Below the pieces are notes generated by a model, which worked only from the letters and a program-made list of their open reading frames with translations, had not been told where the DNA came from and did no database searches. DNA of 32,000 nt, taken from positions 1,350,001 to 1,382,000 of the forward strand of contig NC_008312.1 of NCBI RefSeq assembly GCF_000014265.1, written 5' to 3'. Source of the stretch: Trichodesmium erythraeum IMS101 (GTDB taxonomy: Bacteria > Cyanobacteriota > Cyanobacteriia > Cyanobacteriales > Microcoleaceae). The stretch's first letter is position 1. Each line of letters begins with the position of its first letter. Positions 3 to 29,997 of this stretch are shown piece after piece. The translations under genes and the position numbers were made by a program.

Positions 3-455
3 GAAATATCTAGGATGTCAGGTCAAAAAACTATAGCTATCGTTATGAATGCTAAAAGTTTTTCTGAGGCCACTGATATTAACTATTATATCACTAATAG
101 AGAAGACAAATATGTAACTCCTGAGTGGATATATTCTACTTATTCTCAAAGAAATTGGGTGGAAGTTTTCTACAGGGAAGCCAAAGGATGGTTAGGATTA
201 AGAGAATATCAAGTCAGAGATAAAATCAGCCTTAAAAGGCATTTTATTTTAGTATTTTGTGCTTATACATTTATTATCTGGCATCAGTTAACAGGAGGTA
301 TAAGAAGGCGTTGGGCTAACAAACCATTAAATACGTTTACTGATACTTTAGAAGCATTTCGTACCGCAATATCTTATCGTTTTGTTGAGTGGTTAGATGA
401 AAACATCGACGTATTTACCGCTCATAAAGAGAGTTTAGGGTTTGTTTGGGCTTGA
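3..455 (+). CDS. DDE transposase, C-terminal part (IS4 superfamily, IS701-like); 5' end cut by the window edge
   Basis: The frame is open from the window start to TGA at 453-455. YSQRNWVEVFYREAK fits the IS4-type Y-x2-R-x3-E-x6-K catalytic signature exactly. It is followed by GWLGLREYQVRD...RHFILVFCAYTF, which is typical of IS701-like transposase C-termini. Confidence 0.7.
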   Translation, partial: EISRMSGQKTIAIVMNAKSFSEATDINYYITNREDKYVTPEWIYSTYSQRNWVEVFYREAKGWLGLREYQVRDKISLKRHFILVFCAYTFIIWHQLTGGIRRRWANKPLNTFTDTLEAFRTAISYRFVEWLDENIDVFTAHKESLGFVWA

Positions 456-472
456 AATTTGCTAAAGTCCCG

Positions 473-3400
473 TTAGGGATTTTTCATAGAAATTTGGGCT
501 GACAAGGTTTTATTGCGATATGCGCAATAGGAGTTTTTACTCACTTACTTCGGCTCAGTCAGATTAATTCATCTAAATCTCAAATATTGTCTGAGATAGT
601 TTGATTAGGGATTTTTCATAGAAATTTGGGCTGACAAGGTTTTATTGCGGTATGCGCAATAGGAGTTTTTACTCACTTACTTCGGCTGACAAGGTTTTAT
701 TGCGATATACGCAATAGGAATTTTTACTCACTTACTTCGACTCAGTCAGATTAATTCATCTAAATCTCAAATATTGTCTGAGATAGTTTGATTAGGGATT
801 TTTCATAGAAATTTGGGCTGACAAGGTTTTATTGCGGTATGCGCAATAGGAGTTTTTACTCACTTACTTCGGCTGACAAGGTTTTATTGCGATATACGCA
901 ATAGGAATTTTTACTCACTTACTTCGACTCAGTCAGATTAATTCATCTAAATCTCAAATATTGTCTGAGATAGTTTGATTAGGGATTTTTCATAGAAATT
1001 TGGGCTGACAAGGTTTTATTGCGATATGCGCAATAGGAGTTTTTACTCACTTACTTCGGCTGACAAGGTTTTATTGCGATATGCGCAATAGGAATTTTTA
1101 CTCACTTACTTCGGCTCAGTCAGATTAATTCATCTAAATCTCAAATATTGTCTGAGATAGTTTGATTAGGGATTTTTCATAGAAATTTGGGCTGACAAGG
1201 TTTTATTGCGATATGCGCAATAGGAGTTTTTACTCACTTACTTCGGCTGACAAGGTTTTATTGCGGTATGCGCAATAGGAGTTTTTACTCACTTACTTCG
1301 GCTCAGTCAGATTAATTCATCTAAATCTCAAATATTGTCTGAAATAGTTTGATTAGGGATTTTTCATAGAAATTTGTGCTGACAAGGTTTTATTGCGATA
1401 TGCGCAATAGGAGTTTTTACTCACTTACTTCGGCTGACAAGGTTTTATTGCGATATGCGCAATAGGAATTTTTACTCACTTACTTCGGCTCAGTCAGATT
1501 AATTCATCTAAATCTCAAATATTGTCTGAGATAGTTTGATTAGGGATTTTTCATAGAAATTTGGGCTGACAAGGTTTTATTGCGATATGCGCAATAGGAG
1601 TTTTTACTCACTTATTTCGGCTGACAAGGTTTTATTGCGATATGCGCAATAGAAGTTTTTACTCACTTACTTCGGCTCAGTCAGATTAATTCATCTAAAT
1701 CTCAAATATTGTCTGAGATAGTTTGATTAGGGATTTTTCATAGAAATTTGGGCTGACAAGGTTTTATTGCGATATGCGCAATAGGAGTTTTTACTCACTT
1801 ACTTCGGCTCAGTCAGATTAATTCATCTAAATCTCAAATATTGTCTGAGATAGTTTGATTAGGGATTTTTCATAGAAATTTGGGCTGACAAGGTTTTATT
1901 GCGATATGCGCAATAGGAGTTTTTACTCACTTATTTCGGCTGACAAGGTTTTATTGCGGTATGCGCAATAGGAGTTTTTACTCACTTATTTCGGCTCAGT
2001 CAGATTAATTCATCTAAATCTCAAATATTGTCTGAGATAGTTTGATTAGGGATTTTTCATAGAAATTTGGGCTGACAAGGTTTTATTGCGATATGCGCAA
2101 TAGGAGTTTTTACTCACTTATTTCGGCTGACAAGGTTTTATTGCGGTATGCGCAATAGAAGTTTTTACTCACTTACTTCGGCTCAGTCAGATTAATTCAT
2201 CTAAATCTCAAATATTGTCTGAGATAGTTTGATTAGGGATTTTTCATAGAAATTTGGGCTGACAAGGTTTTATTGCGGTATGCGCAATAGGAATTTTTAC
2301 TCACTTACTTCGGCTGACAAGGTTTTATTGCGATATGCGCAATAGGAGTTTTTACTCACTTATTTCGGCTCAGTCAGATTAATTCATCTAAATCTCAAAT
2401 ATTGTCTGAGATAGTTTGATTAGGGATTTTTCATAGAAATTTGGGCTGACAAGGTTTTATTGCGATATGCGCAATAGGAGTTTTTACTCACTTATTTGGG
2501 CTGACAAGGTTTTATTGCGATATGCGCAATAGGAGTTTTTACTCACTTACTTCGGCTCAGTCAGATTAATTCATCTAAATCTCAAATATTGTCTGAGATA
2601 GTTTGATTAGGGATTTTTCATAGAAATTTGGGCTGACAAGGTTTTATTGCGATATGCGCAATAGGAGTTTTTACTCACTTACTTCGGCTCAGTCAGATTA
2701 ATTCATCTAAATCTCAAATATTGTCTGAGATAGTTTGATTAGGGATTTTTCATAGAAATTTGGGCTGACAAGGTTTTATTGCGATATGCGCAATAGGAGT
2801 TTTTACTCACTTATTTCGGCTGACAAGGTTTTATTGCGGTATGCGCAATAGGAGTTTTTACTCACTTATTTCGGCTCAGTCAGATTAATTCATCTAAATC
2901 TCAAATATTGTCTGAGATAGTTTGATTAGGGATTTTTCATAGAAATTTGGGCTGACAAGGTTTTATTGCGATATGCGCAATAGGAGTTTTTACTCACTTA
3001 TTTTGGCTGACAAGGTTTTATTGCGGTATGCGCAATAGAAGTTTTTACTCACTTACTTCGGCTCAGTCAGATTAATTCATCTAAATCTCAAATATTGTCT
3101 GAGATAGTTTGATTAGGGATTTTTCATAGAAATTTGGGCTGACAAGGTTTTATTGCGGTATGCGCAATAGGAATTTTTACTCACTTATTTGGGCTGACAA
3201 GGTTTTATTGCGATATGCGCAATAGGAGTTTTTACTCACTTATTTCGGCTCAGTCAGATTAATTCATCTAAATCTCAAATATTGTCTGAGATAGTTTGAT
3301 TAGGGATTTTTCATAGAAATTTGGGCTGACAAGGTTTTATTGCGATATGCGCAATAGGAGTTTTTACTCACTTATTTGGGCTGACAAGGTTTTATTGCGA

Positions 3401-3866
3401 TATGCGCAATAGGAGTTTTTACTCACTTATTTCGGCTCAGTCAGATTAATTCATCTAAATCTCAAATATTGTCTGAGATAGTTTGATTAGGGATTTTTCA
3501 TAGAAATTTGGGCTGACAAGGTTTTATTGCGATATGCGCAATAGGAGTTTTTACTCACTTATTTGGGCTGACAAGGTTTTATTGCGATATGCGCAATAGG
3601 AGTTTTTACTCACTTATTTCGGCTCAGTCAGATTAATTCATCTAAATCTCAAATATTGTCTGAGATAGTTTGATTAGGGATTTTTCATAGAAATTTGGGC
3701 TGACAAGGTTTTATTGCGATATGCGCAATAGGAGTTTTTACTCACTTACTTCGGCTGACAAGGTTTTATTGCGGTATGCGCAATAGGAGTTTTTACTCAC
3801 TTACTTCGGCTGACAAAGTTTTATTGCGGTATGCGCAATAGGAATTTTTACTCACTTACTTCGGCT
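473..3866. repeat. Hierarchical non-coding tandem array: 55-bp hairpin unit A (36 copies) and 77-bp unit B (18 full + 1 partial), arranged as 187-bp B-A-A or 132-bp B-A higher-order units, with an 880-bp super-repeat
   Basis: The motif ctcagtcag recurs at 554, 741, 928, 1115, 1302, 1489, 1676, 1808, 1995, 2182, 2369, 2556, 2688, 2875, 3062, 3249, 3436 and 3623. That gives 15 intervals of 187 and 2 of 132. The array ends with A-A-A at 3699-3863. The track shows no ORF of 60 aa or more between 455 and 4217. Each A carries TATTGCG-N5-CGCAATA and each B carries ATCTCA-N9-TGAGAT. Confidence 0.97.
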
Positions 3867-3914: not shown

Positions 3915-3957
3915 TAATACCTAACACCTAACACCTGACATCTGACACCTGACACCT
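3915..3957 (+). repeat. Heptanucleotide tandem repeat (TAAYACC/TGACAYC, about 6 copies), STRR-like
   Basis: Direct reading gives taatacc taacacc taacacc tgacatc tgacacc tgacacc. Heptamer STRR-type repeats are a known feature of filamentous cyanobacteria. Confidence 0.85.
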
Positions 3958-4216
3958 CAAAAATTTATCAATTATCAAATAACTTTAATATTATGGAATT
4001 TTAAACAACCATCTTGAAGTTAATTTAAAGACTATCAAAATTACTAATTTGAGGTATCTTTGAAAATTTAAAGTCAGATTAGAGATGTATTACTGTTGTG
4101 CTTTGCAACAAAGTTCTATCCTTTTACAATTATGAGCAATAATCAGAAAAAAATCCTGGACTAAATTCGCTGGTTTACTAGGTGGAGTTGCTGGTGTATT
4201 TGGTGGAGTTGCTGCT

Positions 4217-4837: not shown

Positions 4838-4847
4838 AGTTTAATTC

Positions 4848-5109
4848 CATATACTGTCTGAAATAGTTTTATTGCGGATGTCGCCATAAAAATTTTTACT
4901 TATAAGGTTTTATTGCGTATGCCGCAATAGGAATTTTTGCTTGTTTCCAGAGGCTCAATCAGTTTAATTTCATCTAAATATCTAGATATTATCTGAAATA
5001 GTTTTATTGCGGATGTTGCAATAAAATTTTTACTTACAAGATTTTATTGTGTATACCATAATAGGAATTTTGACTTACTTCCAGAGGCTCAATTTTGTAG
5101 AAGTCTATT
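4848..5109 (+). repeat. Diverged mini-array of the same repeat family (two units of about 135 bp, four hairpin modules)
   Basis: The motifs are tgtctgaaatagtttt / ttattgcggatgtcgccata / ttattgcgtatgccgcaataggaattttt / gctcaatcagtttaatttcatctaaat..., repeated with gctcaat at 4952 and 5087. They are homologous to the A and B units of the 473-3866 array. Confidence 0.85.
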
Positions 5110-5186
5110 TCAGAAACCCTAATAACTTATATTGTGTTCAGCTATATTCTGATCAATTATCTTTTCAATTTAAAGGAGTGTTAATT

Positions 5187-5828
5187 ATGAAGCTTTATCA
5201 GTTAACAACAACAGCAATAATTACTTTAGTTTCTATTATTAGTAATCCTCTAGAAAGTTTTAGTCAAAAGAAGTTTTTTATTCCTCCAGCTTTAGGGCAA
5301 GATTCGTGGGTTAATTCTCCTACCCGAATAGAAATCACAAAAAAAACATCATTACAAGAAATTAACTATAAATTAATAGAAATAGATACTATGAGAAAAT
5401 ATAACGCGCCTGTATCCGAAGCAGATAAAAAAGCTATTATAGAAGACTTAGAAAAAATTGAAGCCCTGAGAAAAAGTCGTAATTTAATTATTAATTATAT
5501 ATGTTCAGGCTATAATATTGCTGAAGCTTGGGAAAAGGCAGTTAAAGCTTGTGAAAGAAGCTTAAGAAAGGGAGATGATCCAGATATATTTCACCCAATA
5601 CATGAAGCTTACTTTGGTGCCAAAAAATACAACAAAGCAATTAATTCTCTGAAACAGTCTCTAAATAGTGATAATAATAATTATCCTTTTGTCTCATATC
5701 AAAAACTAGGATTAATGTATTTTAAATTAGGCGATTATCCTGAAGCAATTAGGCAATATCAAAAAGCAGTAGAATCAATAAAAAAATCCTATGAAGGATA
5801 TAATTGTGAAGCTTGCATTCATGATTAA
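5187..5828 (+). CDS. Signal-peptide TPR protein; probably the N-terminal part of an interrupted TPR-CHAT gene
   Basis: AAAGGAG at 5172-5178 lies 8 nt before ATG 5187. MKLYQLTTTAIITLVSIISNPLESFSQ looks like a signal peptide. TPR-like helices follow (YQKLGLMYFKLGDYPEAIRQYQKAVE). The ORF ends at TAA 5826-5828, in the same frame as the next ORF. The track start at 5049 lies inside repeat units. Confidence 0.7.
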   Translation: MKLYQLTTTAIITLVSIISNPLESFSQKKFFIPPALGQDSWVNSPTRIEITKKTSLQEINYKLIEIDTMRKYNAPVSEADKKAIIEDLEKIEALRKSRNLIINYICSGYNIAEAWEKAVKACERSLRKGDDPDIFHPIHEAYFGAKKYNKAINSLKQSLNSDNNNYPFVSYQKLGLMYFKLGDYPEAIRQYQKAVESIKKSYEGYNCEACIHD

Positions 5829-5924
5829 TTTGCTTCTAATCTTTCTTTAATTCAGTCACATTTTGGATTTTCATTACTCCAAAATGGTAAAATAGATGAA
5901 GCTGAGAAAAAGTTTTTAGAGGCT

Positions 5925-7523
5925 ATGAAAAATGATTATAAATCATGGAATCATACAATCGCAAACCTACTCGAAAAAAGTGAAAAATTTGAATTATATG
6001 GTGGTTTCGACTTTCAAGGCTTTTTAGTAGGAGAAACTGGAATATTTACTCATGGATTAACAGAATTGCGAATTAAACAAGGAAAATATACAGAAGCTTT
6101 AGAATTTGCTGAATATGGTCGTACTCGCATACTGTCTTATCTAATCAATAAAAATAAAGAATCATCTATTAATATTGATAAAATTCAAGCCATTGCCAAA
6201 CAGCAAAATGCAACATTAGTTAAGTATTCCATGCCAACAAGTATTAATTATCCTGGCATGAAAAAAACCTACAAACCACAACTTTATATCTGGGTAGTTC
6301 AACCAACAGGAAAAGTTGATTTTGCCAATATAAATCTCAGTTTAGTTAACTCTAAATATAATAGCCTTTTAGCCAATAACAAATCACTAACTCCAGAGAA
6401 AAAATCCAACTCATTCCCTAACCTCATCCCCTTTATTCCCCTACTAATTTTTATTTTCGGAATTTCCCTCAGCCTAAAATTACCAGAGCAACGAAAACTT
6501 ATTTTAATCAGTAGTTATTTCATCATATTTGTAACTACTATTCCCATCATAAATAATCAAACCACCAATTCCAGTAATCAAAACTCAGATCAATCATCAG
6601 CAATTTCCTTAGCTAATATTTCTAGAAATACATTTGTCGAAGTCAGAGGAAATACAAGAAACAATTTATCTGAACCTGTAAAAAAAGGGAACTGTCAAAA
6701 TCAAGATGATTGTTTAAAGCAAATGCACAAAATTTTGATAGAACCCATTGCCAAACTATTACCTAAAAACCCAGAACAAGAAGTAATTATTATTCCCGAC
6801 GGCGAACTATTTCGAGTTCCCTTCGCCGCCCTCAAAGGAAGTGATAATCAATATCTAATTCAAAAACATACCCTGCGAGTATCTCCCTCCATCCAACTTT
6901 TGCAATTCACTCAACAACAAAAAGCTCAAAAAGCTCCAAACTTATTCAATCAAAACTTAGTAGTAGGTAATCCAGTAATGCCCATAGACCACAATGGTCA
7001 ACAACTCAAAGCTTTACCAAATGCCGAAAAAGAAGCATCGGCGATCGCTCAACTATTAAACACTATTCCCATCACAGGTATAAGAGCAACAAAATCCAGA
7101 ATTATCAGACAAATGCCCAATGCTAACATCATCCATCTAGCTACTCATGGAGATCCATCTCGTTTAGCTTTTACCCCTTCAGAACAAGAACAAGGTTTTT
7201 TAGGAGAAGGGGAAATTTATAAATTCAACTTAACAGCAGACTTAGTTGTGTTAAGTGCTTGCGAAACTGGGTTAGGAGAAATTACCAGTGATGGAATAGT
7301 AGGTCTTGCCCGTCCTTTTATTGGAGCAGGAGTTCCCAGCATAGTTGCTTCTTTATGGCAAGTTCCTGATGCAACAACTTCCGAATTAATGATAGACTTC
7401 TATAAAAATCTGAAAGCCAAACAAAACAAAGCTCAAGCTCTCCGACAAGCAATGTTAACCACCATGAAAAAACATCCCGAACCTGTGAACTGGGCAGGAT
7501 TTTTCCTCGTCGGCGAATCATAA
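5925..7523 (+). CDS. CHAT-domain (caspase-like) protein with two central hydrophobic helices; the frame is open from 5829, directly after the upstream TAA
   Basis: The C-terminus has the CHAT His/Cys dyad context IIHLATHG ... LVVLSACETGLG ... VASLWQVPD ... WAGFFLVGES. Codons 5829-5924 translate to FASNLSLIQSHFGFSLLQNGKIDEAEKKFLEA, a further TPR-like repeat. Confidence 0.85.
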   Translation: MKNDYKSWNHTIANLLEKSEKFELYGGFDFQGFLVGETGIFTHGLTELRIKQGKYTEALEFAEYGRTRILSYLINKNKESSINIDKIQAIAKQQNATLVKYSMPTSINYPGMKKTYKPQLYIWVVQPTGKVDFANINLSLVNSKYNSLLANNKSLTPEKKSNSFPNLIPFIPLLIFIFGISLSLKLPEQRKLILISSYFIIFVTTIPIINNQTTNSSNQNSDQSSAISLANISRNTFVEVRGNTRNNLSEPVKKGNCQNQDDCLKQMHKILIEPIAKLLPKNPEQEVIIIPDGELFRVPFAALKGSDNQYLIQKHTLRVSPSIQLLQFTQQQKAQKAPNLFNQNLVVGNPVMPIDHNGQQLKALPNAEKEASAIAQLLNTIPITGIRATKSRIIRQMPNANIIHLATHGDPSRLAFTPSEQEQGFLGEGEIYKFNLTADLVVLSACETGLGEITSDGIVGLARPFIGAGVPSIVASLWQVPDATTSELMIDFYKNLKAKQNKAQALRQAMLTTMKKHPEPVNWAGFFLVGES

Positions 7524-11642: not shown

Positions 11643-12056
11643 GTCTTACCAGCTTTTTTCTCAGGGTTCAAATTTTGGCTCTGAAATTTTCTATTTTAAT
11701 TTTTGCTGGTTAGTTTTTCTAGATTTTTTTGATTTAGGGACTAAGTTCTTATTTTTTTTGGTTGATTAATTCTTGATTTTAAACCATATTTTTGGCAGTA
11801 ATTCTTTATATAAAACAATTTAACTACTAAGCTTTTTATTTTTTCATTAATTTATTTGATGGCCTAATTTATTTTTGTATACATTGAATAATTTTTGTCC
11901 ATTTTTTGCTAAAAAGAGATTCATATATTTTTATTATAACTACTATTAACAAAAGTGGAACTATACTGAATTTTTCACTCTTGCAGAAATAGAGATAATT
12001 TATATAATTTTCTAATCGTACACTAATATTAATAGTATTTATGGTGATGGCGTCAA

Positions 12057-12982
12057 TTGATGAAAGCTAATTCTATAGACTTAAGAAAAAGAATACAGAT
12101 ATTTGGGATTATGGAAAAAAATCTACCAATAAACTATATCAAAGGTTTAGAAGGTTTAGGGTTAGTAAAAGTGTTATTCAATGAGTTGAGTCAAAAAGTA
12201 TCAAATAAATGGAGATATTATACCTTGAACTCAAGGTGTAAGCCCTCCTTATAAATTAAATAGTGAAGAGTTAGTAATCTGAGTATAAATAATAGATAAA
12301 AATAATAAGGCAGCTAATGAATAATTATGTAATTTACTGGAACCTGGCACAAAAGTAAAAGGGATAAAAGTATAATTAGTCAAAATTTATGCTATAGCCT
12401 TTAGAAAATATATATACGCCTGAAAAATTAAATTTTAAATTCAATCTGAAAGATTAGAACATCAGGAAATAGTCATAGAAATTAAGGTAGATAATTTAGT
12501 TTTATAGGTTAATTAGGATTGAGTATAACACAGCACTTCGACTATATACTATAGCATTAAAAGAGATAATGGCTAGAGGAGAAACACGGATCAAACTAGA
12601 ACAAAATATTTTGACATTGAGGGGCTATGTATTCAGAAAAAGTTTTTAATATTTATGCAGCAGTGGACGGAGTAATTTTGGGGTGCATAGCATTCGATAC
12701 TAAAGCTTTTCTGCTTAAAGAAGTAGTAATATTAATTGTTGGATAGACTTTTTGTCATAATGGATAACCTTAAAATTCCTAAAAAGGAGAAATAGTAAAA
12801 TAAATTATTGAAGAAATTGAAGATAGTCTCACATATCTACTTAACCTCCTAATTCACCATAATTTTCCTTCTATTAAAATTTTTATCAAGGTTTAATTGA
12901 TGCTATTACCTAAGAGATATTAGAAATTACTCAAAAAAAAGATATTCGCAACTGGTTTACCCATTGTTGTTATTACAACTGA
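12057..12982 (+). pseudogene. Decayed IS630-family transposase (multiple stops and frameshifts)
   Basis: Fragments in shifting frames are SIDLRKRI (N-terminal HTH), FVIMDNLKIPKKE (DDE region, compare IMDNxxIHK) and the terminal KDIRNWFTHCCYYN* ending at 12980-12982. No continuous ORF is present. Confidence 0.6.
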
Positions 12983-14009
12983 ACTTTCCCCCTACAAATG
13001 TACTATAATTTCTAGGAAAAAATATCTATCAATACTTTTACTTACCCTATCTCCTACTTCCATATATGGATACAAAAAATATGTTTTAATTTATGAATAG
13101 GGATTGCCATATAATAAAAATTAATAATAAAAATTATACATATACAACAGCATAGCTCAAGATACTCAAATGGTTAAACATCAGAGCTCTTTTCTTGTGG
13201 ATATTTTTAGTGAAAAAATTGCGGTTAACTACCTTCAAGTGGGAACTTAGTGATTTTTATCAGGAGGAAAGTTCAGTTTTCTTTATGAATAAAAAAACGT
13301 ACTAATTAGTCGGTTAGGTGAGAATAATTTCACTATATCCTATTGCTATAACCAGCTCAAGAACCAAATATTCCACACTTAACGCCGTTTTAAGAGTTCT
13401 TTGATAAATAACTTCTATAAATTTAATCACTAATTAGTTAGTAACTTTCCTGGTTATAGTAATCTATTATTCATCGATAGTTTGCTAATTTATCCGTTAG
13501 TAAATTTATGCATTTTATCCCCAGATAACTGCCGATAAATAGAATAAATTATCCTCACAGGTATATTAGCAAATTGAGCTAAAATCAAATTATATAAATA
13601 ACCATATTGGGGATTATTTTTTAGTAACAAAAGTTCGGAAAATATATAATTTTTTTTAGTTATTCTATATTCACGAGGATTATATTCTATCCTAATTTGT
13701 TCTGGTTGAAGCAGTATATGACCAATAATTTTTCCTTTTTTATAATACCTAGCTTTAATAGAAAGCTCAAGTCATCTATCCAGCTACCAGAAAGGAAAAT
13801 ATTTAAATAGTAAAAAAAATTATTGTATATATAAATATCTGCCAAAGTTGCTTGTAGCATTTGATTATTCCATACTTTTTTCTCCAATTTTTTTGTATGA
13901 CGTATATGCTAATTTTTTATATCCTTGAAAATATATAAAGGATCGAGTTTATTATACAAAGTATAGTTATTTTAAATAAAACTGAGACACTATTTGGCAC
14001 AATAATTAC

Positions 14010-14843
14010 GAATAAATTCATCAAGAGATGTATTGATAGGTGAATATATTCTAGCTCTTTTTAATGCGCTAAAATCATGTTCTTAGTTATTTAAATCAGG
14101 AGAGTATTTTGACAAAAATAGTAATTGGTGACCCCATGCTTCTACTAATTCTCTAATAACGTTTTTTCGTAATTAATGGTGAATTATCCGTGCAGCAGTA
14201 CACTGGGAATTTTTAATGATGGTAATAAATGTTTATCTAACCATTGTTCAAATCCCACAGCATTTAGACTTCCTTTGAATATAATTGGTGCTATTAAATC
14301 TTTTTCCTTTTTTCTTCTCCCGGCTACTAAATTTTCTCTTTTACCTCGTTTTCCCTCTTGCTCACCATAAACTTTTTTCCCTTTTTTTGACTAGGAATAA
14401 ATACAGTCTTGATTCTCTTAAAATTCTAATTCATCAATAAATACAAGGCTTTTACTTCTAAATTTTTTGATTAAATTTCGAGGGAAAGCTGATAATATTT
14501 TATCCTTTCTTCTCTATTTATTTCTCTATAACAAAGTGGTTTCTTTTTTCAAGGAAAATTCATTATTTTTAAAGTATAAAATATAGCTGGTTGATTAACT
14601 CCAAATTTTTTAGCTCTGTCTGACAATGAGCGACTATGGATTTGGTTTTACATCTTTTTCTAATTCTTTCCAATCTAATTTTCTTTGACGACTTTTTACC
14701 TTAGTTGCTGACAATTTTGGGCGAAATAACCATCTATATATCGAAGCTATTCCTATCCCAAATGTATGAGCTGCTTTGGTAATTGTACCGCCATTTTCTA
14801 CAAAATTTATTACTTTTTGTCTGAAGTCTAAACTGTAAGGCAT
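14010..14843 (-). pseudogene. Decayed IS630-family transposase; the N-terminal HTH ORF is intact (14634-14843) and the DDE part is broken
   Basis: MPYSLDFRQKVINFVENGGTITKAAHTFGIGIASIYRW is a typical IS630 OrfA/HTH. Downstream minus-strand fragments read VFIDELEF, KVYGEQEGKRGKRENLVAGRRKKGKDLIAPIIFKGSLNAVGFEQWLDKHLLPSLK and LLENS..KHGVTNYYF. They are interrupted by several stops. Confidence 0.7.
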
Positions 14844-15169
14844 AGTTCAAAATGTTTTCTAGTTGACTTAATTTTATTATACCCAATTCTTGTTTCAATC
14901 TTAATTAAAACGACTATAACTATGATTATTTCTCCCATATAATTTAGTTTTTCACACAATTTTTTATTTTTTTTACTTACATCATAAGTCTTTATCTCAT
15001 AAATATTAGGTACTGCTTCCTAAGGAGATTTTAAACTCGAATCATAACCATATTTTAAGTTTTTTTTCTTGGTATTCAAACCCAACTATCAGAGAATTTT
15101 TTCAAATATTATTTGATTATTTTTGCAATATCTGGATGGATAAGTTCATCACAAAATCCTTGTGAAAAT

Positions 15170-15397
15170 CTATTTTTTTGAGGCATTTATCAGATTAGTC
15201 ATTCTTTGAATTATTTCTCCACAAAATAAGCTATTTATTTCTTGAACTCGCGGGCCGCTAATTGAAAATTTTTTTATTCCTGGAGGATTAACTAATATTA
15301 ATTCTAAATCTCCGTTAATTTTTCATAGAGCTTCGAGCCAATATTCGGGAATTCCTTCTTTGGTGGGGACTACAATTGAGAATGTTGGTTGTCTCAT
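15170..15397 (-). pseudogene. Possible fragment of a family-2 glycosyltransferase (N-terminal part, interrupted by stops)
   Basis: The minus-strand reading is MRQPTFSIVVPTKEGIPEYWLEAL*KINGDLELILVNPPG..., which resembles the GT2 N-terminal FSIVIPT...L..L......E(I/L)I(V/L)V pattern. The evidence is weak. Confidence 0.3.
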
Positions 15398-15967
15398 TTC
15401 ATTTATCAGTTATTAACATTATTAGGATGTCATCGTACTACTATATAACTCCTGGTTTACTACAAACAGTGAAGAAATTTAGGCATTACAAGTTTATTGT
15501 CAAAGAAAAAAAATGTTGGTAGACCTAGAAAAATATCGCCTATAGTGGAAAAAAGTTCATGTCTGAACTCTTTCAAACAGAGAGTTTTAATAGTTATGAG
15601 GTCAAGCGATCGCGCTTCTTCAAGAATGAAACTACCCTACTATATCCCCATTTCCTCATGTCTAGGATGTCCAGCATTTCCAGCTGCTGGAGCTTCTCCC
15701 TCAGAACCCCATATGTCTTTTAAGAGAATGAAAATACCCTGACCCCCCCCAAGAGGGGAAGTCAAAAGCCAAAAGTAAGATTCTATAGGCTCTAAACTTA
15801 GATGCTACAGTAATTTCAGCAAATTATTTCACATATATAGTTTTCAACTATTTGTAATATTCTTTTTTTCACCCTTGGTATTATTTATTAGTGTTTAAAC
15901 AAAAATAATATTAGTAGTTAATATTAGATATAATTTTATCTAACACTAATAACCTAACACCTTCTGA

Positions 15968-20169: not shown

Positions 20170-21358
20170 AAGTTATTAGTGCTTTGAAAAGAATTACTTA
20201 CTGCTGGTAGTATATTGTAATAGTGGTCTATTGTAGTTATCAAGAGTTACCCAAAAACACCATATATAGTGCATAACAATTTTGGCTATTTTTACATTCT
20301 GTGAGTGTGGAAACCCAGCTAACGCCACGGGGAGTGAGGACTGAAATATTTATTCAAAAATCTTTAGTTATTATAATTAAACAAGTTTGATTCTAATTAA
20401 AAAATATTTCAATTCTAACACCAGATAATCCACTGATAATTTATGTGTAACCTTGTCAATAGTTTTTCCTATTTTCACTGCTAACTTTTTTAGAAAATTC
20501 CATACTAATACCCTAGAAGTTATAAGGTTTATTTGGATTTGTATGAGATGAAATTGACAATAATTTAAACATGTTAATTGTTTGATAATAGTATGAAATT
20601 TTCCATTTTTTATCTATATTGATAGACTCAAATTTTACAGCTCTAAGTAAGATTTAATTGAGGTAATATTTTGAAATATATTCTGCTTAAGCTGGCATAA
20701 ACAAAGAAAAAAAACACTTTTTAATGCTGTAAAAAGCCTTTCATAATTGATTATTTTTCCTAATATTTTTTCATTTATATACCCTAGGTTAAATGTTAAA
20801 AATTTTGTATTTTTTGAAATATTTTATATGATTAAATGCTAGGATTAATGTTTAAGTAAGAATCATATTTTTTTTCTAAATAATCTATTAATTTAATTAA
20901 TATTTTTATTGCATATACACTATATATTCATACAGTTTTAAATAATATTAATTATGATTTAAAGCTATTTTGCATAATTTAAATTTTAGTCAATATTGAC
21001 GAGTTATAAGATTATTAAATTAATATTTTTGCCACTAATATAATTATATCATTCTTGTCTAATTATTAAAGATATTCAGAAAATTAATTTGACAAATTGT
21101 CATTTATATTTTTAGATTTTTTGTTCTCTTATTGTTATAGCAATCCTAAATAATATTCGATAAAATATGATATTTAGTCAAATTAGCTATCCTAAAAAAA
21201 TATACTTTTTTATGATAATTTATCTTCAAAATAATTTAGTCTTAGTATATATAATATATTTTAAAAGTAATATCTCTCAAAGACTTTGTTGTACAAAATA
21301 TGATTAGATAGTAAAAATTAAGAAGTGAAAATGGTACAAAAAACTATAGTCAATAGGT

Positions 21359-21507
21359 ATGAGCAATAGTAAACCTAAGTCCAATTTCAAGTCCTTTTAT
21401 CGGCTCAAAAACTGGTCTGAGTATGATGCCTCCTTAAAACAGCAAGGAAGTATAACTTTTTGGCTGGCTCCCGAGGTGTTTCAGGAGTGGCTTAATCAGA
21501 CAAAAAC
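21359..21507 (+). pseudogene. N-terminal fragment of an IS5-family transposase, truncated at about 21507
   Basis: YRLKNWSEYDASLKQQGSITFWLAPEVFQEWL matches the conserved IS5-type N-terminus (NWxEYNxxLxxRGSLTFW). The reading frame then runs into reverse-complemented COP23-like sequence. Confidence 0.6.
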
Positions 21508-21616
21508 TGAATGCAGGCTTTTCTTGATAAAATTCCTCTAGTTGCCACCTATTTAAAACATCAGAAAAGTTGCAATAAACTCGTTTACCTTCAGCCAAAG
21601 TATTAGCCAGTTCCAC
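21508..21616 (-). pseudogene. 3' fragment of a second COP23-like gene (inverted relative to 4217-4837)
   Basis: The minus-strand reading NTLAEGKRVYCNFSDVLNRWQLEEFYQEKPAF compares with NTFAEGKRVYYDFSNVLNRWQLEEYSQEKPAF at the C-terminus of the 4217-4837 ORF. Confidence 0.8.
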
Positions 21617-21642
21617 AAAAAAATCTAACCCTAGATGCTAAA

Positions 21643-21677
21643 GGTGTTAGGTATTAGGTGTTAGGTATTAGGTTTAA
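21643..21677 (-). repeat. Heptamer repeat GGTRTTA x5 (reverse complement of the TAAYACC repeat at 3915-3957)
   Basis: The sequence reads ggtgtta ggtatta ggtgtta ggtatta ggtttaa. The flanking 21678-21725 is also homologous, in reverse complement, to 3866-3914. Confidence 0.85.
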
Positions 21678-21776
21678 GAATTAACAAATTGATAACATCT
21701 TACTACCAAATCTATTGATTTTGGCCATGCTGTTAAATCTCAATAACTTTTTACTCAAAATCAATTCTTTCTAACA

Positions 21777-21846
21777 ACCTGAAATCTAAAACCTGAAGTC
21801 TAAAACCTGAAATCTAAAACCTAAAATCTAAAACCTGAAAAATCTC
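21777..21846 (+). repeat. Tandem 14-mer (two alternating heptamers AAAACCT/GAAATCT), about 5 copies, upstream of the chelatase gene
   Basis: Direct reading gives cctgaaatctaaaa cctgaagtctaaaa cctgaaatctaaaa cctaaaatctaaaa cctgaaaaatct. Confidence 0.85.
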
Positions 21847-21919
21847 TGTCAAGTTGGCAAATACTTGTGACATCTTTAAACTGTATTTGTTTGACATATC
21901 TTTTTCAAAAAAATTGGCC

Positions 21920-25673: not shown

Positions 25674-25850
25674 TGTTGGGTTTCGTGAGCTCAACTCTAC
25701 CTACAAAAGCATCAAGCTAGACGTAGGTGGGGTAGAACGGAGTGAAACCCAAGAAAAACATATTTTCAAGTCAGAAGTAGGTTAGCTTGAATAAACTGAG
25801 ACTGAACAAAAACATCTTTTGTTGGTTTTCGTGACTTCAACCCAACCTAC
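25674..25850. repeat. Three REP-like hairpin elements (+, -, +); the first two form an inverted doublet just after the chelatase stop
   Basis: tgttgggtttcgtgagctcaactctacctac lies at 25674-25704. Its near reverse complement cgtaggtggggtagaacggagtgaaacccaag lies at 25722-25752. ttgttggttttcgtgacttcaacccaacctac lies at 25819-25850. Confidence 0.75.
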
Positions 25851-25885: not shown

Positions 25886-26391
25886 ATAGAATATCGTAGG
25901 GCAAAAAATACCAGGGGCAATTTATTTTTTCACAGCAGTAAAATACAAACGCTAGAAAGTTTTGTGTCAACCTGAAAATATAGATTTACTAAGAAAAGCT
26001 TTTCGATATGTTATGCAAAAATATCCATTTTAAATAGATGTTATTGTCATCCTGCTAGATTACCTCTATACTCTTTGAAAATTACCTAAAAATGATGCGG
26101 ATTTTTCTAATTGTTGGCAGTTAATTAAAAATTATTTTAGTCGTCAATGCTATTCTCAATATGAGGATAAAATTTTAATATCTCGACAATATACAAGGGA
26201 AAAAATTGTTCGGCAATGTAGGTTTTGGGAGCATCAAATTCAAAGGAATTTAGATTTTGCTAATCATATCAAATATATTGATTATCATCCAGTACATCAT
26301 GGATTAGTGGCTGCTCCCAAAGATTGAGAATACTCTAGTTTTATCGTTATATAAAAATAGGAATTTATGACAAAATGTGGGAGTCTTCATA
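25886..26391 (+). pseudogene. Decayed REP-associated tyrosine transposase (RAYT, IS200/IS605-like Y1 family)
   Basis: With stops and frameshifts it reads EYRRAK.IPGAIYFFTAVKYKR*KVLCQPENIDLLRKAFRYVMQKYPF*IDVIVILLDYLYTL*KLPKNDADFSNCWQLIKNYFSRQC...REKIVRQCRFWEHQIQRNLDFANHIKYIDYHPVHHGLVAAPKD*EYSSF. This matches the RAYT pattern (PDHLH...W..RFWEH.IRD..DF..H.DYIHYNPVKHGLV..P.DW.YSSF). Confidence 0.75.
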
Positions 26392-26775
26392 AACGATTAT
26401 TTTTGATAGTAATTTTTCCAGAGAATAAAACTATAATTTTTGCCAATAATTAAGGATATTGAGGGTATTATTATTGGGTAGTTTCTTAAGCAAAAATTTT
26501 ACATTTTCAAAGGGATTTAGATTTTGCTAATCATATCAAATATATTGATTATCATCCAGTATATCATGGATTAGTGGCTGCTCCCAAAGATTGAGAATAC
26601 TCTAGTTTTTATCGTTATATAAAAATAGGAATTTATGACAAAATGTGGGAGTCTTCATAAACGATTATTTTTGATAGTAATTTTGCCAGAGAATAAAACT
26701 ATAATTTTTGCCAATAATTAAGGATATTGAGGGTATTGTTATTGGGTAGTTTCTTAAGCAAAAATTTTACATTAC
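26241..26775 (+). repeat. Two-copy tandem duplication of about 267 bp (RAYT 3' end plus the region upstream of the HEPN gene)
   Basis: caaaggaatttagattttgctaatcatatc... at 26241 recurs as caaagggatttagattttgctaatcatatc... at 26508. Both copies run through ...gggtagtttcttaagcaaaaattttacatt with only a few substitutions or indels. Confidence 0.9.
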
Positions 26776-26790
26776 AGGAGGTAGATTTTT

Positions 26791-27237
26791 TTGGATAATA
26801 ACTCAGATACTTATGGCAGAACTATTTATTTAGGTGCTTCTCGACGTCGCCTTGAAGATGCTGAAGCGCTCTATAATCAAGAACGTTGGAATGGTGCTAT
26901 TTACATGGGTGGTTATGCTATTGAATGCGCTCTCAAATCTCTCCTTTGTCATGAGGAAGACATAGTGAATTTTAAGAAGACAAAAGTATTTAAGCGCTTA
27001 AAAGGTTCAAATTTACATGATTTAGAACAGCTATTAGAAGCTTCGTATATATGTAAAGGAGTTAAAGATTCAAAAAAAGATCAATCTCTTAAAAAGGCAT
27101 GGGACACAGTTAAATTATGGCAAAATGATAAGTTACGATACTCAGATAAAAAGGGTGATAAAATTGAGGCTAGCAAGTTTATTTATGCAGTAAAAATACT
27201 ACATGGATATTTCTTGGCAAAACTACAAGCTTATTGA
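26791..27237 (+). CDS. HEPN-domain protein (148 aa)
   Basis: AGGAGG at 26776-26781 lies 9 nt before the TTG start. The helix pattern is ASRRRLEDAEALYNQERWNGAIYMGGYAIECALKSLL, NLHDLEQLL and LWQNDKLRYSD...EASKFIYAVKIL. This matches the classical HEPN layout (A..L.....W..A......A.E.ALK.LL / H.L..L / ...RY). Confidence 0.6.
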   Translation: MDNNSDTYGRTIYLGASRRRLEDAEALYNQERWNGAIYMGGYAIECALKSLLCHEEDIVNFKKTKVFKRLKGSNLHDLEQLLEASYICKGVKDSKKDQSLKKAWDTVKLWQNDKLRYSDKKGDKIEASKFIYAVKILHGYFLAKLQAY

Positions 27238-27288
27238 TGCAGTAAAAAAACTACATAGATATTTATTGAGCAAACAAGGAGAAGGCTA

Positions 27289-29997
27289 ATGACGGATAGA
27301 AAACTCTTAATGGAACAAATTCAGGACCACCTAAACCAGAGTTTACAACTTCAAGATTCACAAGTTCAAGTAAACGTAATAAGAATGTCAACAGGTGGGC
27401 TAAAAATTATAATTATTACTAGTTTATTTCAGGAACAATCTTTAGAAGAGCGAGAAGACAAAATTGATGAAATATTAGCAAATATAGATTTGAATTTGAA
27501 TAAATATCCAATTTTAAGCTATGATTTGTTAACTCCTGAAGAAGCAATAGAAGAACCTTTTGAATCTACTCAACCTCAGTTACCTTTGTGGTCAAATATT
27601 TTAATGGCACCAGAACCTGATGTACAAAAAAAATCAGATGAAGAAGATATTTTTAAAACTCCTTTAGTTGTGACATTCTATTCTTTTCGAGGAGGGGTTG
27701 GTCGTTCTACGGCATTGGGTTTAGTTGCTGGAATATTAGCTACTGAAAAAAAACGTCGAGTAGTAATACTAGATTTTGATTTAGAAGCACCAGGAATTTC
27801 AATTTTATTGGAGCCAGATATTTCTAAATTGAGTCCAGAAAATTATGGTGTATTAGATTATTTATACCAACGCTTTATCTCCCCGGAAGAAAATTTTCCT
27901 CCCATTGAACGTTGTATTTATCAAGTAAAATTAAAAGCCCGCGGTGACTTATTTGTGGTTCCGGTTGGGGAATATGATGAATATTATATTCATCGTTTAG
28001 CTGAACTAGACAGGGGTACTTTGCAGGCTTTTTATCATCGAGAAAATAATCCAGTTGAACAACTAATTGAAGATATTAAAAAGCAATTAAATCCTGATGT
28101 GATTTTAATTGATGCCCGTCCTGGATTTAATGATACTAGTGCTATTGCTTTATTAGATTTAGCTGATACAGGAATTATCTGTTTTTCACCTACTGACCAA
28201 AGTTTTAAAGGATTAAGTTGGGTGGTAAAAAGTGTTCGTAAACAATGGGAATATCAAGGGAAACCAGATTTGAGTTTTGTCCTAACACCTATACCTCCTG
28301 TTGCTCAAGAACAACGTCAAGTTTGGATAAGTAATGTTGAAGATTGGATAGAAGAAAACTGGGGGTTACCAAATGATAAAACAGTCAGCGACACTTACTA
28401 TGAAGTTAACTACAATCCTACCCTTAGCACTTTATCAAGTCTAGTTAATAATTTACCTAAAAGTTTACTGGATAATTATCTTTCAATTGCAGAATCAATT
28501 GATGCTAGTTTGCCAGATATTAAACCTCATTTAAAAACCACTAATGTTCTTAATAAAGATACTAAAGAAGCTGTTTTAAAGGAGTTAAAATTTTCAGCAG
28601 TAACAGCACAAGATATAGAAGTAGAAAAGATTCCAGATATATTCCAACGCACAGGAGATTTCCCCAATTTTTTAAACGATAAAACTTGGTTGATTCGAGG
28701 TGCAAAAGGAACAGGAAAAAGCTTATTATTTAGACTTTTTGTAGAACAAACATTAAAAGACAAAGCAAAAAAATTAGCTGAAGAATCTGGTAAAAACATA
28801 GATAATTTTTATTGTATTCCTGGTCATGGTAAAGCTACAATAAAAAGGTCTATTTTAGAGGGTACCGCCCTAGCTAGTTATGAAGAGCAGGCGGGAGATA
28901 ATTGCTGGAGATGTTTTTGGTCAAATTATGCTTTATTACAATTATGTTATTCTTTGCCACAAAAGTCGCTCCCTAATATTAATGAGAATTTAAAAGCTTT
29001 AATAGATACTGAGGAACCCAGAAGCGGTGATATAGTTTCGTGGTTAGTTGACCAAGCAAAATCATCAACAGCTAGTGTCGAAACTCTTGATCAACTACGA
29101 GATGTTAACTCATACTTACAAGAAAATAATCGGCGAGTGTGGCTCCTCTATGATGAGTTAGATACAGGATTTGGCCATAGTCAAGAAGACTATCGGCGAC
29201 GAAGAGAAGCATTAGAAGCTTTGCTGGCTTGGTGGTTAGAAAGTGGTATCAGCCTGGAATATATTGTGCCTAAGATATTTTTACGAGAGGATATTTGGAA
29301 TAAACTTAACTTTACTAACAAAGGACATTTTGCCAGTGGGCGAACGCTTGAATTGAAGTGGGAAGAAGCTGATCTGTGGCGACTTGTACTGCGCCAAGCT
29401 CTTCAATTATCTGATAGTCTTAGTCAAACTATTAGTCAGGAGTCAGGAGTAACAGTTGAACGACTTGAGAAGACTGAATTAAAGCAATTACGCCAAAGCC
29501 TTTTTCCTCTGTGGGGAGAAAAGATGGGTAGTGGCAACAAGAGTTACATTTACAACTGGATACGGAAACGAACCGCTGACAGCCAAGATAATAGTTTTCC
29601 CCGAAGCTTGATATTACTTTTAGAGCAAGCAGTCGAAAGAGAGAAAAATTACTCCAAAGAATATAGTGATCCAAGAATTTTGCGCCCAAAGTCATTAACT
29701 GATGCTTTGCCAGAGGTATCTAAGCAGCGTGTCGATGAAGTGTGCAACGAATATCCCGAACTTGAGGCACTGTTAAAGAAACTCCGGGGTGAACGCTCAC
29801 CTATTGATGAAAAACAACTAACAAAAATATGGAACATTAAAGGTACAAAGTTAAATGCTCGTCTCCAGGAAATGATTGATGCAGGTATTTTTAAAGAGTA
29901 TTCACGCCGTAAAAATGTCTCCCCAGATGTCCGGGTTTATAGTGTTGCTGAACTATATTTGTATGGATTGGGTATGACTCGTAAGGGACAGCGCTAG
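27289..29997 (+). CDS. 902-aa three-module NTPase: small N-terminal domain, ParA/MinD-fold P-loop with variant RGGVGRS Walker A, and a second P-loop ATPase with helical C-terminus
   Basis: AAGGAG at 27276-27281 lies 7 nt before the ATG. The first Walker A is SFRGGVGRST (27682-27711), with VILIDARPG at 28099-28125. The second Walker A is GAKGTGKS (28699-28722), with Walker B VWLLYDELD at 29137-29163. From memory these resemble the NCBI families named 'KGGVGR-motif variant AAA ATPase' and 'P-loop ATPase, Sll1717 family'. That recollection is unverified. Confidence 0.8.
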   Translation: MTDRKLLMEQIQDHLNQSLQLQDSQVQVNVIRMSTGGLKIIIITSLFQEQSLEEREDKIDEILANIDLNLNKYPILSYDLLTPEEAIEEPFESTQPQLPLWSNILMAPEPDVQKKSDEEDIFKTPLVVTFYSFRGGVGRSTALGLVAGILATEKKRRVVILDFDLEAPGISILLEPDISKLSPENYGVLDYLYQRFISPEENFPPIERCIYQVKLKARGDLFVVPVGEYDEYYIHRLAELDRGTLQAFYHRENNPVEQLIEDIKKQLNPDVILIDARPGFNDTSAIALLDLADTGIICFSPTDQSFKGLSWVVKSVRKQWEYQGKPDLSFVLTPIPPVAQEQRQVWISNVEDWIEENWGLPNDKTVSDTYYEVNYNPTLSTLSSLVNNLPKSLLDNYLSIAESIDASLPDIKPHLKTTNVLNKDTKEAVLKELKFSAVTAQDIEVEKIPDIFQRTGDFPNFLNDKTWLIRGAKGTGKSLLFRLFVEQTLKDKAKKLAEESGKNIDNFYCIPGHGKATIKRSILEGTALASYEEQAGDNCWRCFWSNYALLQLCYSLPQKSLPNINENLKALIDTEEPRSGDIVSWLVDQAKSSTASVETLDQLRDVNSYLQENNRRVWLLYDELDTGFGHSQEDYRRRREALEALLAWWLESGISLEYIVPKIFLREDIWNKLNFTNKGHFASGRTLELKWEEADLWRLVLRQALQLSDSLSQTISQESGVTVERLEKTELKQLRQSLFPLWGEKMGSGNKSYIYNWIRKRTADSQDNSFPRSLILLLEQAVEREKNYSKEYSDPRILRPKSLTDALPEVSKQRVDEVCNEYPELEALLKKLRGERSPIDEKQLTKIWNIKGTKLNARLQEMIDAGIFKEYSRRKNVSPDVRVYSVAELYLYGLGMTRKGQR

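Follow-up and report, generated by a model that had tools for sequence, protein, structure and literature searches.

NsiR1 occurs in Nostoc as 12 tandem copies located upstream of hetF (PMC9045159). In Trichodesmium erythraeum IMS101, 45% of primary reads come from a hyper-expressed tandem array of seven repeats; this strain also transcribes and processes four 34-nt hairpin direct repeats, a 'CRISPR remnant' between Tery_1947 and Tery_1949 that has no cas genes (PMC4143802). Here we describe a 3.4-kb non-coding array of hairpin repeats found in a 32,000-nt stretch of Trichodesmium DNA (positions 1,350,001 to 1,382,000 of contig NC_008312.1, hereafter the window), together with the hairpin family to which its units belong. 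The array is built of a 55-bp unit A and a 77-bp unit B and precedes genes coding for a COP23-domain protein, a TPR protein and a CHAT protease-like protein. The reading that we favour is that of terminator-shaped repeats expanded by recombination; it is tentative, and we would give it a rough probability of 0.45.

The NsiR1 array can be considered the closest cyanobacterial precedent. Both are tandem arrays of short units, each ending in a terminator hairpin, and both are located upstream of a CHAT-family gene: CHAT stands for 'Caspase HetF Associated with Tprs', and HetF is the founding CHAT protease. However, NsiR1 units have their own (DIF) promoters, whereas none was detectable in the repeats described here (sigma-70-like scan, + strand); the two arrays have no sequence similarity, and the Trichodesmium hairpin family is found at non-CHAT loci as well.

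In architecture, the closest analogues appear to be the BOX elements of Streptococcus pneumoniae, composed of boxA, n copies of boxB and boxC, and the comparable mycobacterial MIRU-VNTR (variable-number tandem repeat) loci. They share with our family a modular intergenic layout of a head, variable units of about 45-55 bp and a tail, as well as the presence at multiple loci with varying copy number. At the COP23 locus, 2 to 19 units are found between a conserved head and tail. There is, however, no sequence relation, the phylum is a different one, and here the units are terminator-shaped, lack small open reading frames (ORFs) and have an extra 187/880-bp hierarchy.

In unit shape, the closest analogue would be an intrinsic terminator. 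As in intrinsic and tandem terminators, the family stem-loop leads straight into a U-run, on a single strand, and several arrays are located after a co-oriented gene or before a promoter. Unlike terminators, the family reuses one sequence across loci and genera, is present in tens of tandem copies and is not strictly located at gene 3' ends. The nested periods of 55, 187 and 880 bp with a near-identical top level also recall eukaryotic satellite higher-order repeats, but the scale is small here, there are two top-level copies, and recent unequal crossing-over would be the simplest cause. Intergenic hairpin repeats of the VNTR kind are already known; the Microcoleaceae family itself is apparently new.

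Two other candidates were rejected. The linkers are identical within the array and no cas gene is present in the window, which does not fit a CRISPR array. A type III toxin-antitoxin (toxI-like) locus was dismissed because the downstream genes code for COP23, TPR/CHAT and STAND NTPase proteins, among others, and each unit has its own terminator-like hairpin.

Anatomy of the array

The array and its parts are as follows.

15..455, + strand: C-terminal part of a DDE (IS4-like) transposase (weak matches to Pfam DDE_Tnp_1 and DDE_Tnp_1_4); the end of this insertion sequence (IS) interrupts a B unit
473..497, + strand: truncated B unit (last 25 nt), left edge of the array in the window; TTAGGGATTTTTCATAG is first found at 473
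498..3866, + strand: main array of 36 A units (55 bp) and 18 B units (77 bp), ending A-A-A plus 'gct'
498..552, + strand: example of an A unit, terminator-like, with a 10-bp stem UUUUAUUGCG / CGCAAUAGGA including two G·U pairs, a 5-nt loop and then GUUUUUAC
553..629, + strand: example of a B unit, with 47 nt homologous to the 'head' of the cassette downstream of COP23, then 30 extra nt (TTTGATTAGGGATTTTTCATAGAAATTTGG)
630..1003 (630-816 and 817-1003), + strand: two identical 187-bp A-A-B blocks (0 mismatches), a recent duplication
1675..2554, + strand: 880-bp higher-order block, copy 1 (B-A plus four B-A-A)
2555..3434, + strand: 880-bp higher-order block, copy 2 (4 mismatches in 880 relative to copy 1)

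The array was first noticed by a reader working from the sequence alone (the original prediction), and A units were accepted in our parsing with up to four mismatches to that reader's consensus. The parsing returned the predicted census of 36 A units and 18 full plus one partial B units, with unit boundaries differing by an immaterial 1 nt. The order of B-A-A and B-A, the B-to-B spacing of 187 bp (15 times) or 132 bp (twice, 1675 to 1807 and 2555 to 2687) and the terminal A-A-A agreed as well. Between 498 and 3863 the units follow one another without a gap: A B AA B AA ... B A ... B A ... AAA. All of them are on the + strand; the - strand and the rest of the window have none. The repeating cassette, B-A-A (187 bp), is replaced by B-A twice, and the left edge contributes a third B-A. 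Tandem Repeats Finder gives identical periods, nested as 55, 187 and 880 bp. The third level, first seen by eye as a recurrence of 1808-2555 at 2688-3435, has 4 mismatches in 748 nt, and the whole 880-bp block likewise has 4. There are 13 variants among the 36 A units and 3 among the 18 full B units. The array is young and homogeneous, with B nearly invariant as well.

The inverted repeat TATTGCG-N5-CGCAATA is perfect in every A unit (36/36), as had been noted; it has 39 matches in the window versus 0.06 expected. The inner inverted repeat of B, ATCTCA-N9-TGAGAT, had been ascribed to each B and is intact in 17 of 18: the unit at 1301-1377 has TGAAAT in place of TGAGAT. Invariance of the A stem was the ground on which selection had first been proposed. 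There are seven variable sites within A and indeed none of them falls into the 14 stem positions, but the chance of such an outcome is about 0.11, and the within-array contrast is thus weak and, taken alone, not significant. Selection on the stem is better supported by comparison between genera (see below).

As predicted, no ORF of at least 60 aa is present between 456 and 4216, and the distance from the transposase gene is correct: its stop codon occupies 453-455, and the truncated B begins 18 nt later, with B homology resuming at 473. As the homology is broken by the transposase fragment, an IS must have landed in a B unit. This IS cuts the array at its left side, and more units may lie beyond the left end of the window.

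The hairpin family in other genomes

The family was searched for with the pattern TATTGCG-N5-CGCAATAGRRRTTTTTAC in one genome per species. It matched 36 loci in Okeania, Dapis (both assigned to Microcoleaceae), Trichodesmium and other Microcoleaceae, the exact pattern being found on 1 to 5 contigs per genome; a looser hairpin pattern revealed further copies in one mat metagenome. A search of other genomes for the units themselves had been proposed. An exact A 33-mer had no match in species-representative genomes, and neither had an exact B 41-mer in the JGI metagenomes; relatives, with varying copy number, were found only via the looser hairpin pattern and the neighbouring proteins. In the same scan, T. 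erythraeum IMS101 gave no exact copy of the core, and this COP23 gene and the kinase gene were lacking there. Synteny with the seven-repeat array of IMS101 was rejected on account of the missing COP23 and kinase genes.

Most of the loci are tandem arrays with locus-specific linkers and periods such as 44, 49, 51/52, 65, 67/68, 121, 189 and 300 bp; the linkers are identical within each array. The family core is TTT-TATTGCG-N5-CGCAATA-GGAGTTTTTAC-TYA, i.e., a hairpin and a T-run. The conserved block covers about 36 nt (TTT TATTGCG N5 CGCAATA GGAG TTTTTAC TYA), with variation in the loop and in the purines of GGAG. The 30-nt core is exactly retained between genera and loci while the linkers differ, and it is this retention that argues for selection: the stem appears to be kept at the sequence level. 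Orthologous intergenic sites hold arrays in different genera after COP23, beside SMC, at the leuD/290-aa gene locus and before a STAND-type NTPase gene, and there are at least 10 locus families besides the COP23 one.

Rfam search of the window and seven related loci gave no match at the gathering score, and only chance-level matches at E up to 10; nothing relevant to the hairpin family was found in the literature by concept or by sequence string. The initial impression that no element of this form had been described therefore holds. Apparently, this is an undescribed family of terminator-shaped intergenic tandem arrays of variable length in Trichodesmium, Okeania, Dapis and related filamentous cyanobacteria.

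The presence of the core at many unrelated loci with different flanks could also be expected of a selfish element. The hairpin may be a REP-like (repetitive extragenic palindrome) or single-stranded DNA element that a hairpin-recognising enzyme, for instance a HUH/Y1 transposase, has spread and multiplied, leaving the arrays as by-products. We consider this doubtful. REP/BIME and REPIN elements are short intergenic palindromes forming higher-order clusters with their flanks, and a REP-associated tyrosine transposase pseudogene is indeed present in the window. An IS abuts the array in two lineages, the leuD hairpin is present in Okeania and Dapis and missing from Trichodesmium, and the tolerance to G·T pairs is compatible with a single-stranded DNA hairpin on one strand. 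The unit ends, TTAC or TTGC, resemble the IS608 target, which is TTAC; we treat this resemblance as a lead only. On the other hand, the exact-pattern scan gives few loci per genome, not hundreds, the repeats are in direct rather than alternating orientation, and the array hairpin has neither the 5' GTAG nor a flanking cognate transposase. Orthologous loci across genera argue for vertical inheritance, and linkers derived from local flanks are as in local duplication rather than repeated insertion. Viral contigs have no copy of the core.

Two specific links to transposases were tried and rejected. The transposase pseudogene of the window is flanked by a different repeat (GTTGGGTTTCGTGA...), not by the array hairpin. 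As to an IS200/IS605-type origin (TTAC target), the hairpin does not bound the TnpB genes located near two loci (L038 and L041), and there is no conservation of guide-like flanks.

Two minor features of the family can be mentioned here. The loops at different loci (units in L013-L048 and the window) form reverse-complement pairs: TATGT/ACATA, TATGC/GCATA, TATTG/CAATA and TATAT/ATATA, and the CAATA and TATTG loops amount to the perfect palindrome TATTGCGCAATA with a 7-nt arm duplicated. Either the way in which the hairpin originated or loop inversion may be reflected in this. In Okeania, two hairpin arrays, L019 (an insertion of about 94 nt in a 49-bp array) and L026, are interrupted by a small element similar to a miniature inverted-repeat transposable element; its terminal inverted repeats are CAGGACTTACGC..GCGCATAAGTCCTG, and its inner palindrome is GGGGCGAATGSCATTCGCCC.

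The array after COP23 and the origin of the large array

A second, small array of the same family is located immediately downstream of the COP23 gene. The features of this region are:

3915..3957, + strand: heptamer repeats TAACACC / TGACACC between the large array and COP23, much longer in L072 and L069
4217..4837, + strand: COP23-domain gene (Pfam COP23, E = 1e-24), bracketed by both arrays
4838..5117, + strand: small array of the hairpin family (head, two hairpins and tail, twice), directly after the COP23 stop codon (4837)
4870-4888, 4911-4929, 5005-5023 and 5045-5063, + strand: small-array hairpins, outside the span first reported
4947 and 5081, + strand: small-array tails CCAGAGGCTCAAT
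4857, 4992 and 5105, + strand: small-array head TCTGAAATAG (4857, 4992), which forms a 10-nt inverted repeat with CTATTTCAGA (5105)
5118..5186, + strand: conserved non-coding leader upstream of the TPR/CHAT genes (ATG at 5187), close to identical in Okeania
5187..7523, + strand: genes of the TPR protein and the CHAT protease-like protein (Pfam TPR; Pfam CHAT, E = 2e-67)

Okeania and a related genome have, at the same position, the same head (..TTAATT..TGTCTGAAATAG) and the same tail, separated by 5 to 19 units whose length is 51/52 or 77 bp. The shared tail CCAGAGGCTCAATTTTGCAG..GTCTATTTCAGAAAC runs into the leader of the TPR/CHAT gene, and in Okeania both tail and leader match those of the window almost completely. 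Head and tail include a 10-nt inverted repeat. The number of units between COP23 and TPR/CHAT is 19, 12 and 8 in Okeania, 5-8 in P01_H01_bin.35 and 2 or 2+2 in Trichodesmium. A more distant COP23-CHAT pair is separated by a 101-nt spacer without a hairpin, i.e., an empty site.

Both units of the large array can be traced to this cassette. Module B consists of a tail fragment GGCTCA, the head and 30 extra nt, and the A linker ACTCACTTACTTCGGCT is the tail minus 4 nt. Upstream of COP23, no array is present in Okeania, while three Trichodesmium lineages (the window, L072 and L045) have one. Since B and the A linker derive from the local head and tail and the upstream site is empty in Okeania, we regard the large array as a probable Trichodesmium-specific paralogue derived from the cassette downstream of COP23 and multiplied as B-A-A.

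The block at 4838-5186, including the small array, the tail and the leader, is 97.8% identical to L072, compared with 90.8% for the COP23 coding sequence and 86% for the upstream spacer. For an intergenic block, an identity so high points to real constraint or, alternatively, to a tract of recent recombination. If constrained, the block could be a cis-regulatory RNA or a leader for the TPR/CHAT genes.

Strand asymmetry of the hairpin

All 36 A units have a terminator-like site on the + strand, and on that strand only, versus 2.8 expected in the site scan: a G-C-containing stem-loop with a U-run within 0-2 nt and a folding energy of -9.5 to -11.5 kcal/mol. With a covariance model derived from the units, the + strand reaches 57-60 bits, compared with 22-25 bits for the - strand. 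In the family, a T-run is located beside 279 of 282 core palindromes, being on one side only in 269, and two of the three exceptions hit assembly gaps. One-sided changes in the stem, counted once per locus after removal of chance metagenome matches, give about 21 G·U pairs on the + strand versus about 4 A·C, a ratio to be read bearing in mind that the search pattern fixed the stem and that units within one array are not independent. G·U and A·C changes are complementary transitions, and so equal frequencies would be expected in a double-stranded site. Opposite the 5' U's, the only variation is between G and A.

The RNA structure was also examined by alignment. Among 70 distinct aligned units, the 10-bp helix is formed in 92% of cells, and the hairpin at 5045-5063 has one compensatory change (C-G to U-A) common to three lineages. 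Covariation in this alignment does not exceed that in shuffled controls, so the structure is backed only by the strand asymmetry and that one compensatory change. No consistent covariation was seen for a second small tail hairpin, GAGU-UUUU-ACUC. Taken together, the asymmetry points to a conserved single-stranded hairpin of the + strand, most simply RNA with a U-tail, rather than to a symmetric DNA operator.

This bears on the protein-binding interpretation with which the array was first presented. The palindrome TATTGCG-N5-CGCAATA may be a double-stranded DNA site and the arrays may be clustered sites for a dimeric protein, as in a centromere, an iteron or a nucleoid organiser. Formally, a perfect 7+7 dyad with a 5-bp spacer in tandem is similar to F sopC and to iterons, where tandem direct repeats each have a 7-bp inverted repeat (as do all 36 A units here), and invariant arms around a variable central 5 bp would suit such a site. 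However, the array is chromosomal, has no par, sop or rep gene or any other partition or replication partner gene adjacent to it in the window, and its family is present at many loci per genome. The conserved block is asymmetric with its T-run on one side, the substitutions are unequal where a symmetric site predicts otherwise, and the loop-closing pair is often broken with the array still kept. We thus find the centromere/iteron analogy inapplicable and regard a double-stranded binding site as highly unlikely.

If RNA is the conserved molecule, the arrays could be functional multi-copy RNA loci, in which the hairpin and its tail are read sequence-specifically by an RNA-binding protein or a nuclease. 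Their products would be numerous small hairpin RNAs, or they would serve as a sponge, similar to NsiR1-type sibling small RNAs or to the T. erythraeum arrays. This seems possible but rather unlikely. Both arms and the tail are conserved across genera beyond structural need, G·U pairs are tolerated on the + strand, and the excess of intergenic over coding identity between lineages (97.8% versus 90.8%) is in line with a functional transcript. IMS101 provides precedents of an expressed tandem array and of processed hairpin repeats (PMC4143802), and arrays lie upstream of the TPR/CHAT pair much as the NsiR1 array lies upstream of hetF (PMC9045159). At the same time, no sigma-70-like promoter is present in any unit on the + strand (7 found versus 17 expected overall, in a scan for this promoter type), and units of 44-55 bp are too short to have a promoter each. 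There is no Rfam match; IMS101 has no exact core copy and neither this COP23 nor the kinase. Besides, if each unit terminates, the downstream units would hardly be transcribed. A promoter within B or the head was considered and rejected, as the spacing of the TTAATT / TGAAAT-like hexamers varies from 12 to 22 nt and gives no match in the scan.

Proposed expansion by recombination and possible insulation of neighbouring genes

In the reading that we favour, the A unit is one copy of the conserved module of about 36 nt, whose 10-bp stem-loop, directly followed by a U-run on the + strand, has the shape of an intrinsic (Rho-independent) terminator or of an RNA 3'-end hairpin. Such modules reside at intergenic sites, often orthologous between genera, and are amplified locally together with a piece of the local flank. 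The resulting tandem arrays differ in copy number between genomes, behaving like a VNTR, BOX or MIRU element. In the window, the ancestral member is the cassette after COP23 (head, hairpins and tail). A diverged copy of it, placed upstream of COP23 in Trichodesmium only and consisting of a tail fragment, the head, 30 extra nt and two hairpin units, constitutes B-A-A. Unequal crossing-over or slippage during replication presumably multiplied this to 18 cassettes or more, the 880-bp and 187-bp duplications and then the IS insertion being the latest steps. The anatomy, the distribution of the family, the strand asymmetry and the origin of the cassette are observed, while transcription, termination, insulation and the neutrality of the expansion are deduced. 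Nested near-identical blocks are as expected from unequal crossing-over, and the large array appears to be an extreme, recent and lineage-specific expansion. Most of its 36 copies would probably be redundant products of a neutral expansion.

Each unit of the + strand would stop or attenuate transcription in one direction. The two arrays would thereby insulate COP23 from upstream transcription and TPR/CHAT from COP23 read-through, and one-directional insulation of neighbouring genes seems to be the simplest interpretation of their placement. The small array is co-oriented with COP23, sits at its 3' end and separates it from the conserved TPR/CHAT leader, whereas the large one is located 350 bp upstream of COP23, beyond the predicted promoter of this gene. 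In Okeania, a gene begins 75 nt after the end of a 49-bp array, and a promoter-like site lies within this interval.

Several points weigh against this reading. The orientation of the arrays is mixed: the upstream gene is co-oriented in about 10 locus families but not in 6 others, with no significant bias, so many arrays are not simply terminators of the preceding gene. The stem has only three G-C pairs, and its letter-for-letter conservation exceeds what a terminator needs, fitting a sequence-specific factor or concerted evolution better. The search pattern that fixed the stem also inflates its apparent invariance. Thirty-six copies are far beyond the need for termination, and termination itself is predicted from the shape of the sequence.

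A more far-reaching proposal can also be made, which we consider speculative and, on balance, not likely. The hairpin and its tail could be an undescribed, Microcoleaceae-specific structured RNA or single-stranded DNA module read by a dedicated factor. As working parts, the arrays could serve as multi-terminator 'rheostats' tunable by copy number, or as RNA sponges, setting the expression of their neighbours (COP23, TPR/CHAT, STAND NTPase and others). The 3.4-kb array would be a selected high-dosage locus, comparable to the hyper-expressed tandem non-coding RNA array of T. erythraeum.

About 40% of the Trichodesmium genome is non-coding, and the hairpin family represents a concrete recurrent building block of this DNA. 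The module is common to the benthic relatives Okeania and Dapis, keeps a constant sequence and expands or contracts at fixed intergenic sites. If its units terminate transcription, the arrays would be a simple heritable means of insulating or tuning neighbouring genes; if a factor reads them, they would belong to a new RNA-protein system. The arrays also cause short-read assemblies to break at predictable places and may be useful as strain markers.

The array locus in independent assemblies

Breaks of this kind bear on the array itself. Every short-read assembly breaks within it, so that its length depends on a single assembly, and other arrays of the family hold runs of N. The length and the higher-order pattern might then be an assembly artefact, which we find very hard to credit. 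Two COP23-bearing contigs, L007 and L008, begin inside the last A units and have the same right junction as the window; the L008 contig was found in 8 samples among the matches listed, plus 14 similar places. Diverged B-A units are located upstream of COP23 in two other Trichodesmium lineages, L045 and L072. In L072, COP23 is 88% identical and the array ends 31 nt closer to the heptamer repeats; in L045, which is Trichodesmium sp. MAG_R02, the array abuts a 5'-truncated COP23 and an IS remnant. Recurrence of the right junction in independent contigs, together with the diverged units in relatives, means that the locus is real, and it is older than the species. Furthermore, the 13 A variants are distributed in a consistent nested pattern and the IS junction is defined. 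The copy number rests on one assembly.

Public assemblies of relatives are scaffolded with gaps (runs of N) across their arrays in L042 and L044. The CHAT and ribokinase proteins of the window were found residue-identical on Tara Oceans and other marine contigs and in several metagenome-assembled genomes.

Neighbouring genes and other features of the window

The context of the array is chromosomal: its neighbours in the window are the IS and genes coding for COP23, TPR/CHAT, a kinase, a Na+/H+ exchanger, a ribokinase and ChlH. The sole ParA-like domain belongs to a 902-aa protein encoded 23 kb from the array.

The COP23 gene has an upstream ATG at 4131 that is out of frame through an A7 run, affecting the conserved N-terminus MSNNQKK.. 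(4131-4216). Independent contigs (L007 and L008) likewise have A7, while in L069 the run is A6 and the protein, of 234 aa, is intact. The frameshift could be natural, or the homopolymer could be phase-variable. TPR and CHAT are separate ORFs in the window (5049-7523; 259 aa, or 213 aa as called elsewhere, and 532 aa) and a single ORF in Okeania (776-785 aa) and L073 (1018 aa), which looks like a gene split or pseudogenisation.

The REP-associated tyrosine transposase pseudogene is located at 25893-26345 (NCBIfam NF047646, E = 6e-40) and has three in-frame stops. Its 3' part and the downstream sequence are duplicated in tandem at 26239-26773 (268 bp x 2, 98% identical). Upstream of it, at 25675 and 25821, there are REPIN-like repeats GTTGGGTTTCGTGA..CCTAC unrelated to the array hairpin. 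Further on, 26791-29997 codes for a HEPN-domain protein (148 aa) followed by the 902-aa protein, which has ParA/AAA_31-like and ORC/CDC6-like ATPase regions. Both genes are kept on metagenome contigs (L001) and constitute a possible defence or conflict pair.

Two AT-rich regions (26-29% GC), 11650-15960 (about 4.3 kb) and 20170-21850 (about 1.7 kb), are without ORFs of at least 100 aa, and no tRNA or Rfam matches were found within them. Heptamer tracts resembling in kind those upstream of COP23 are located at 21642-21673 and 21770-21840 (AGGTATT; CTAAAAC) and represent a type of short tandem repeat common among filamentous cyanobacteria.

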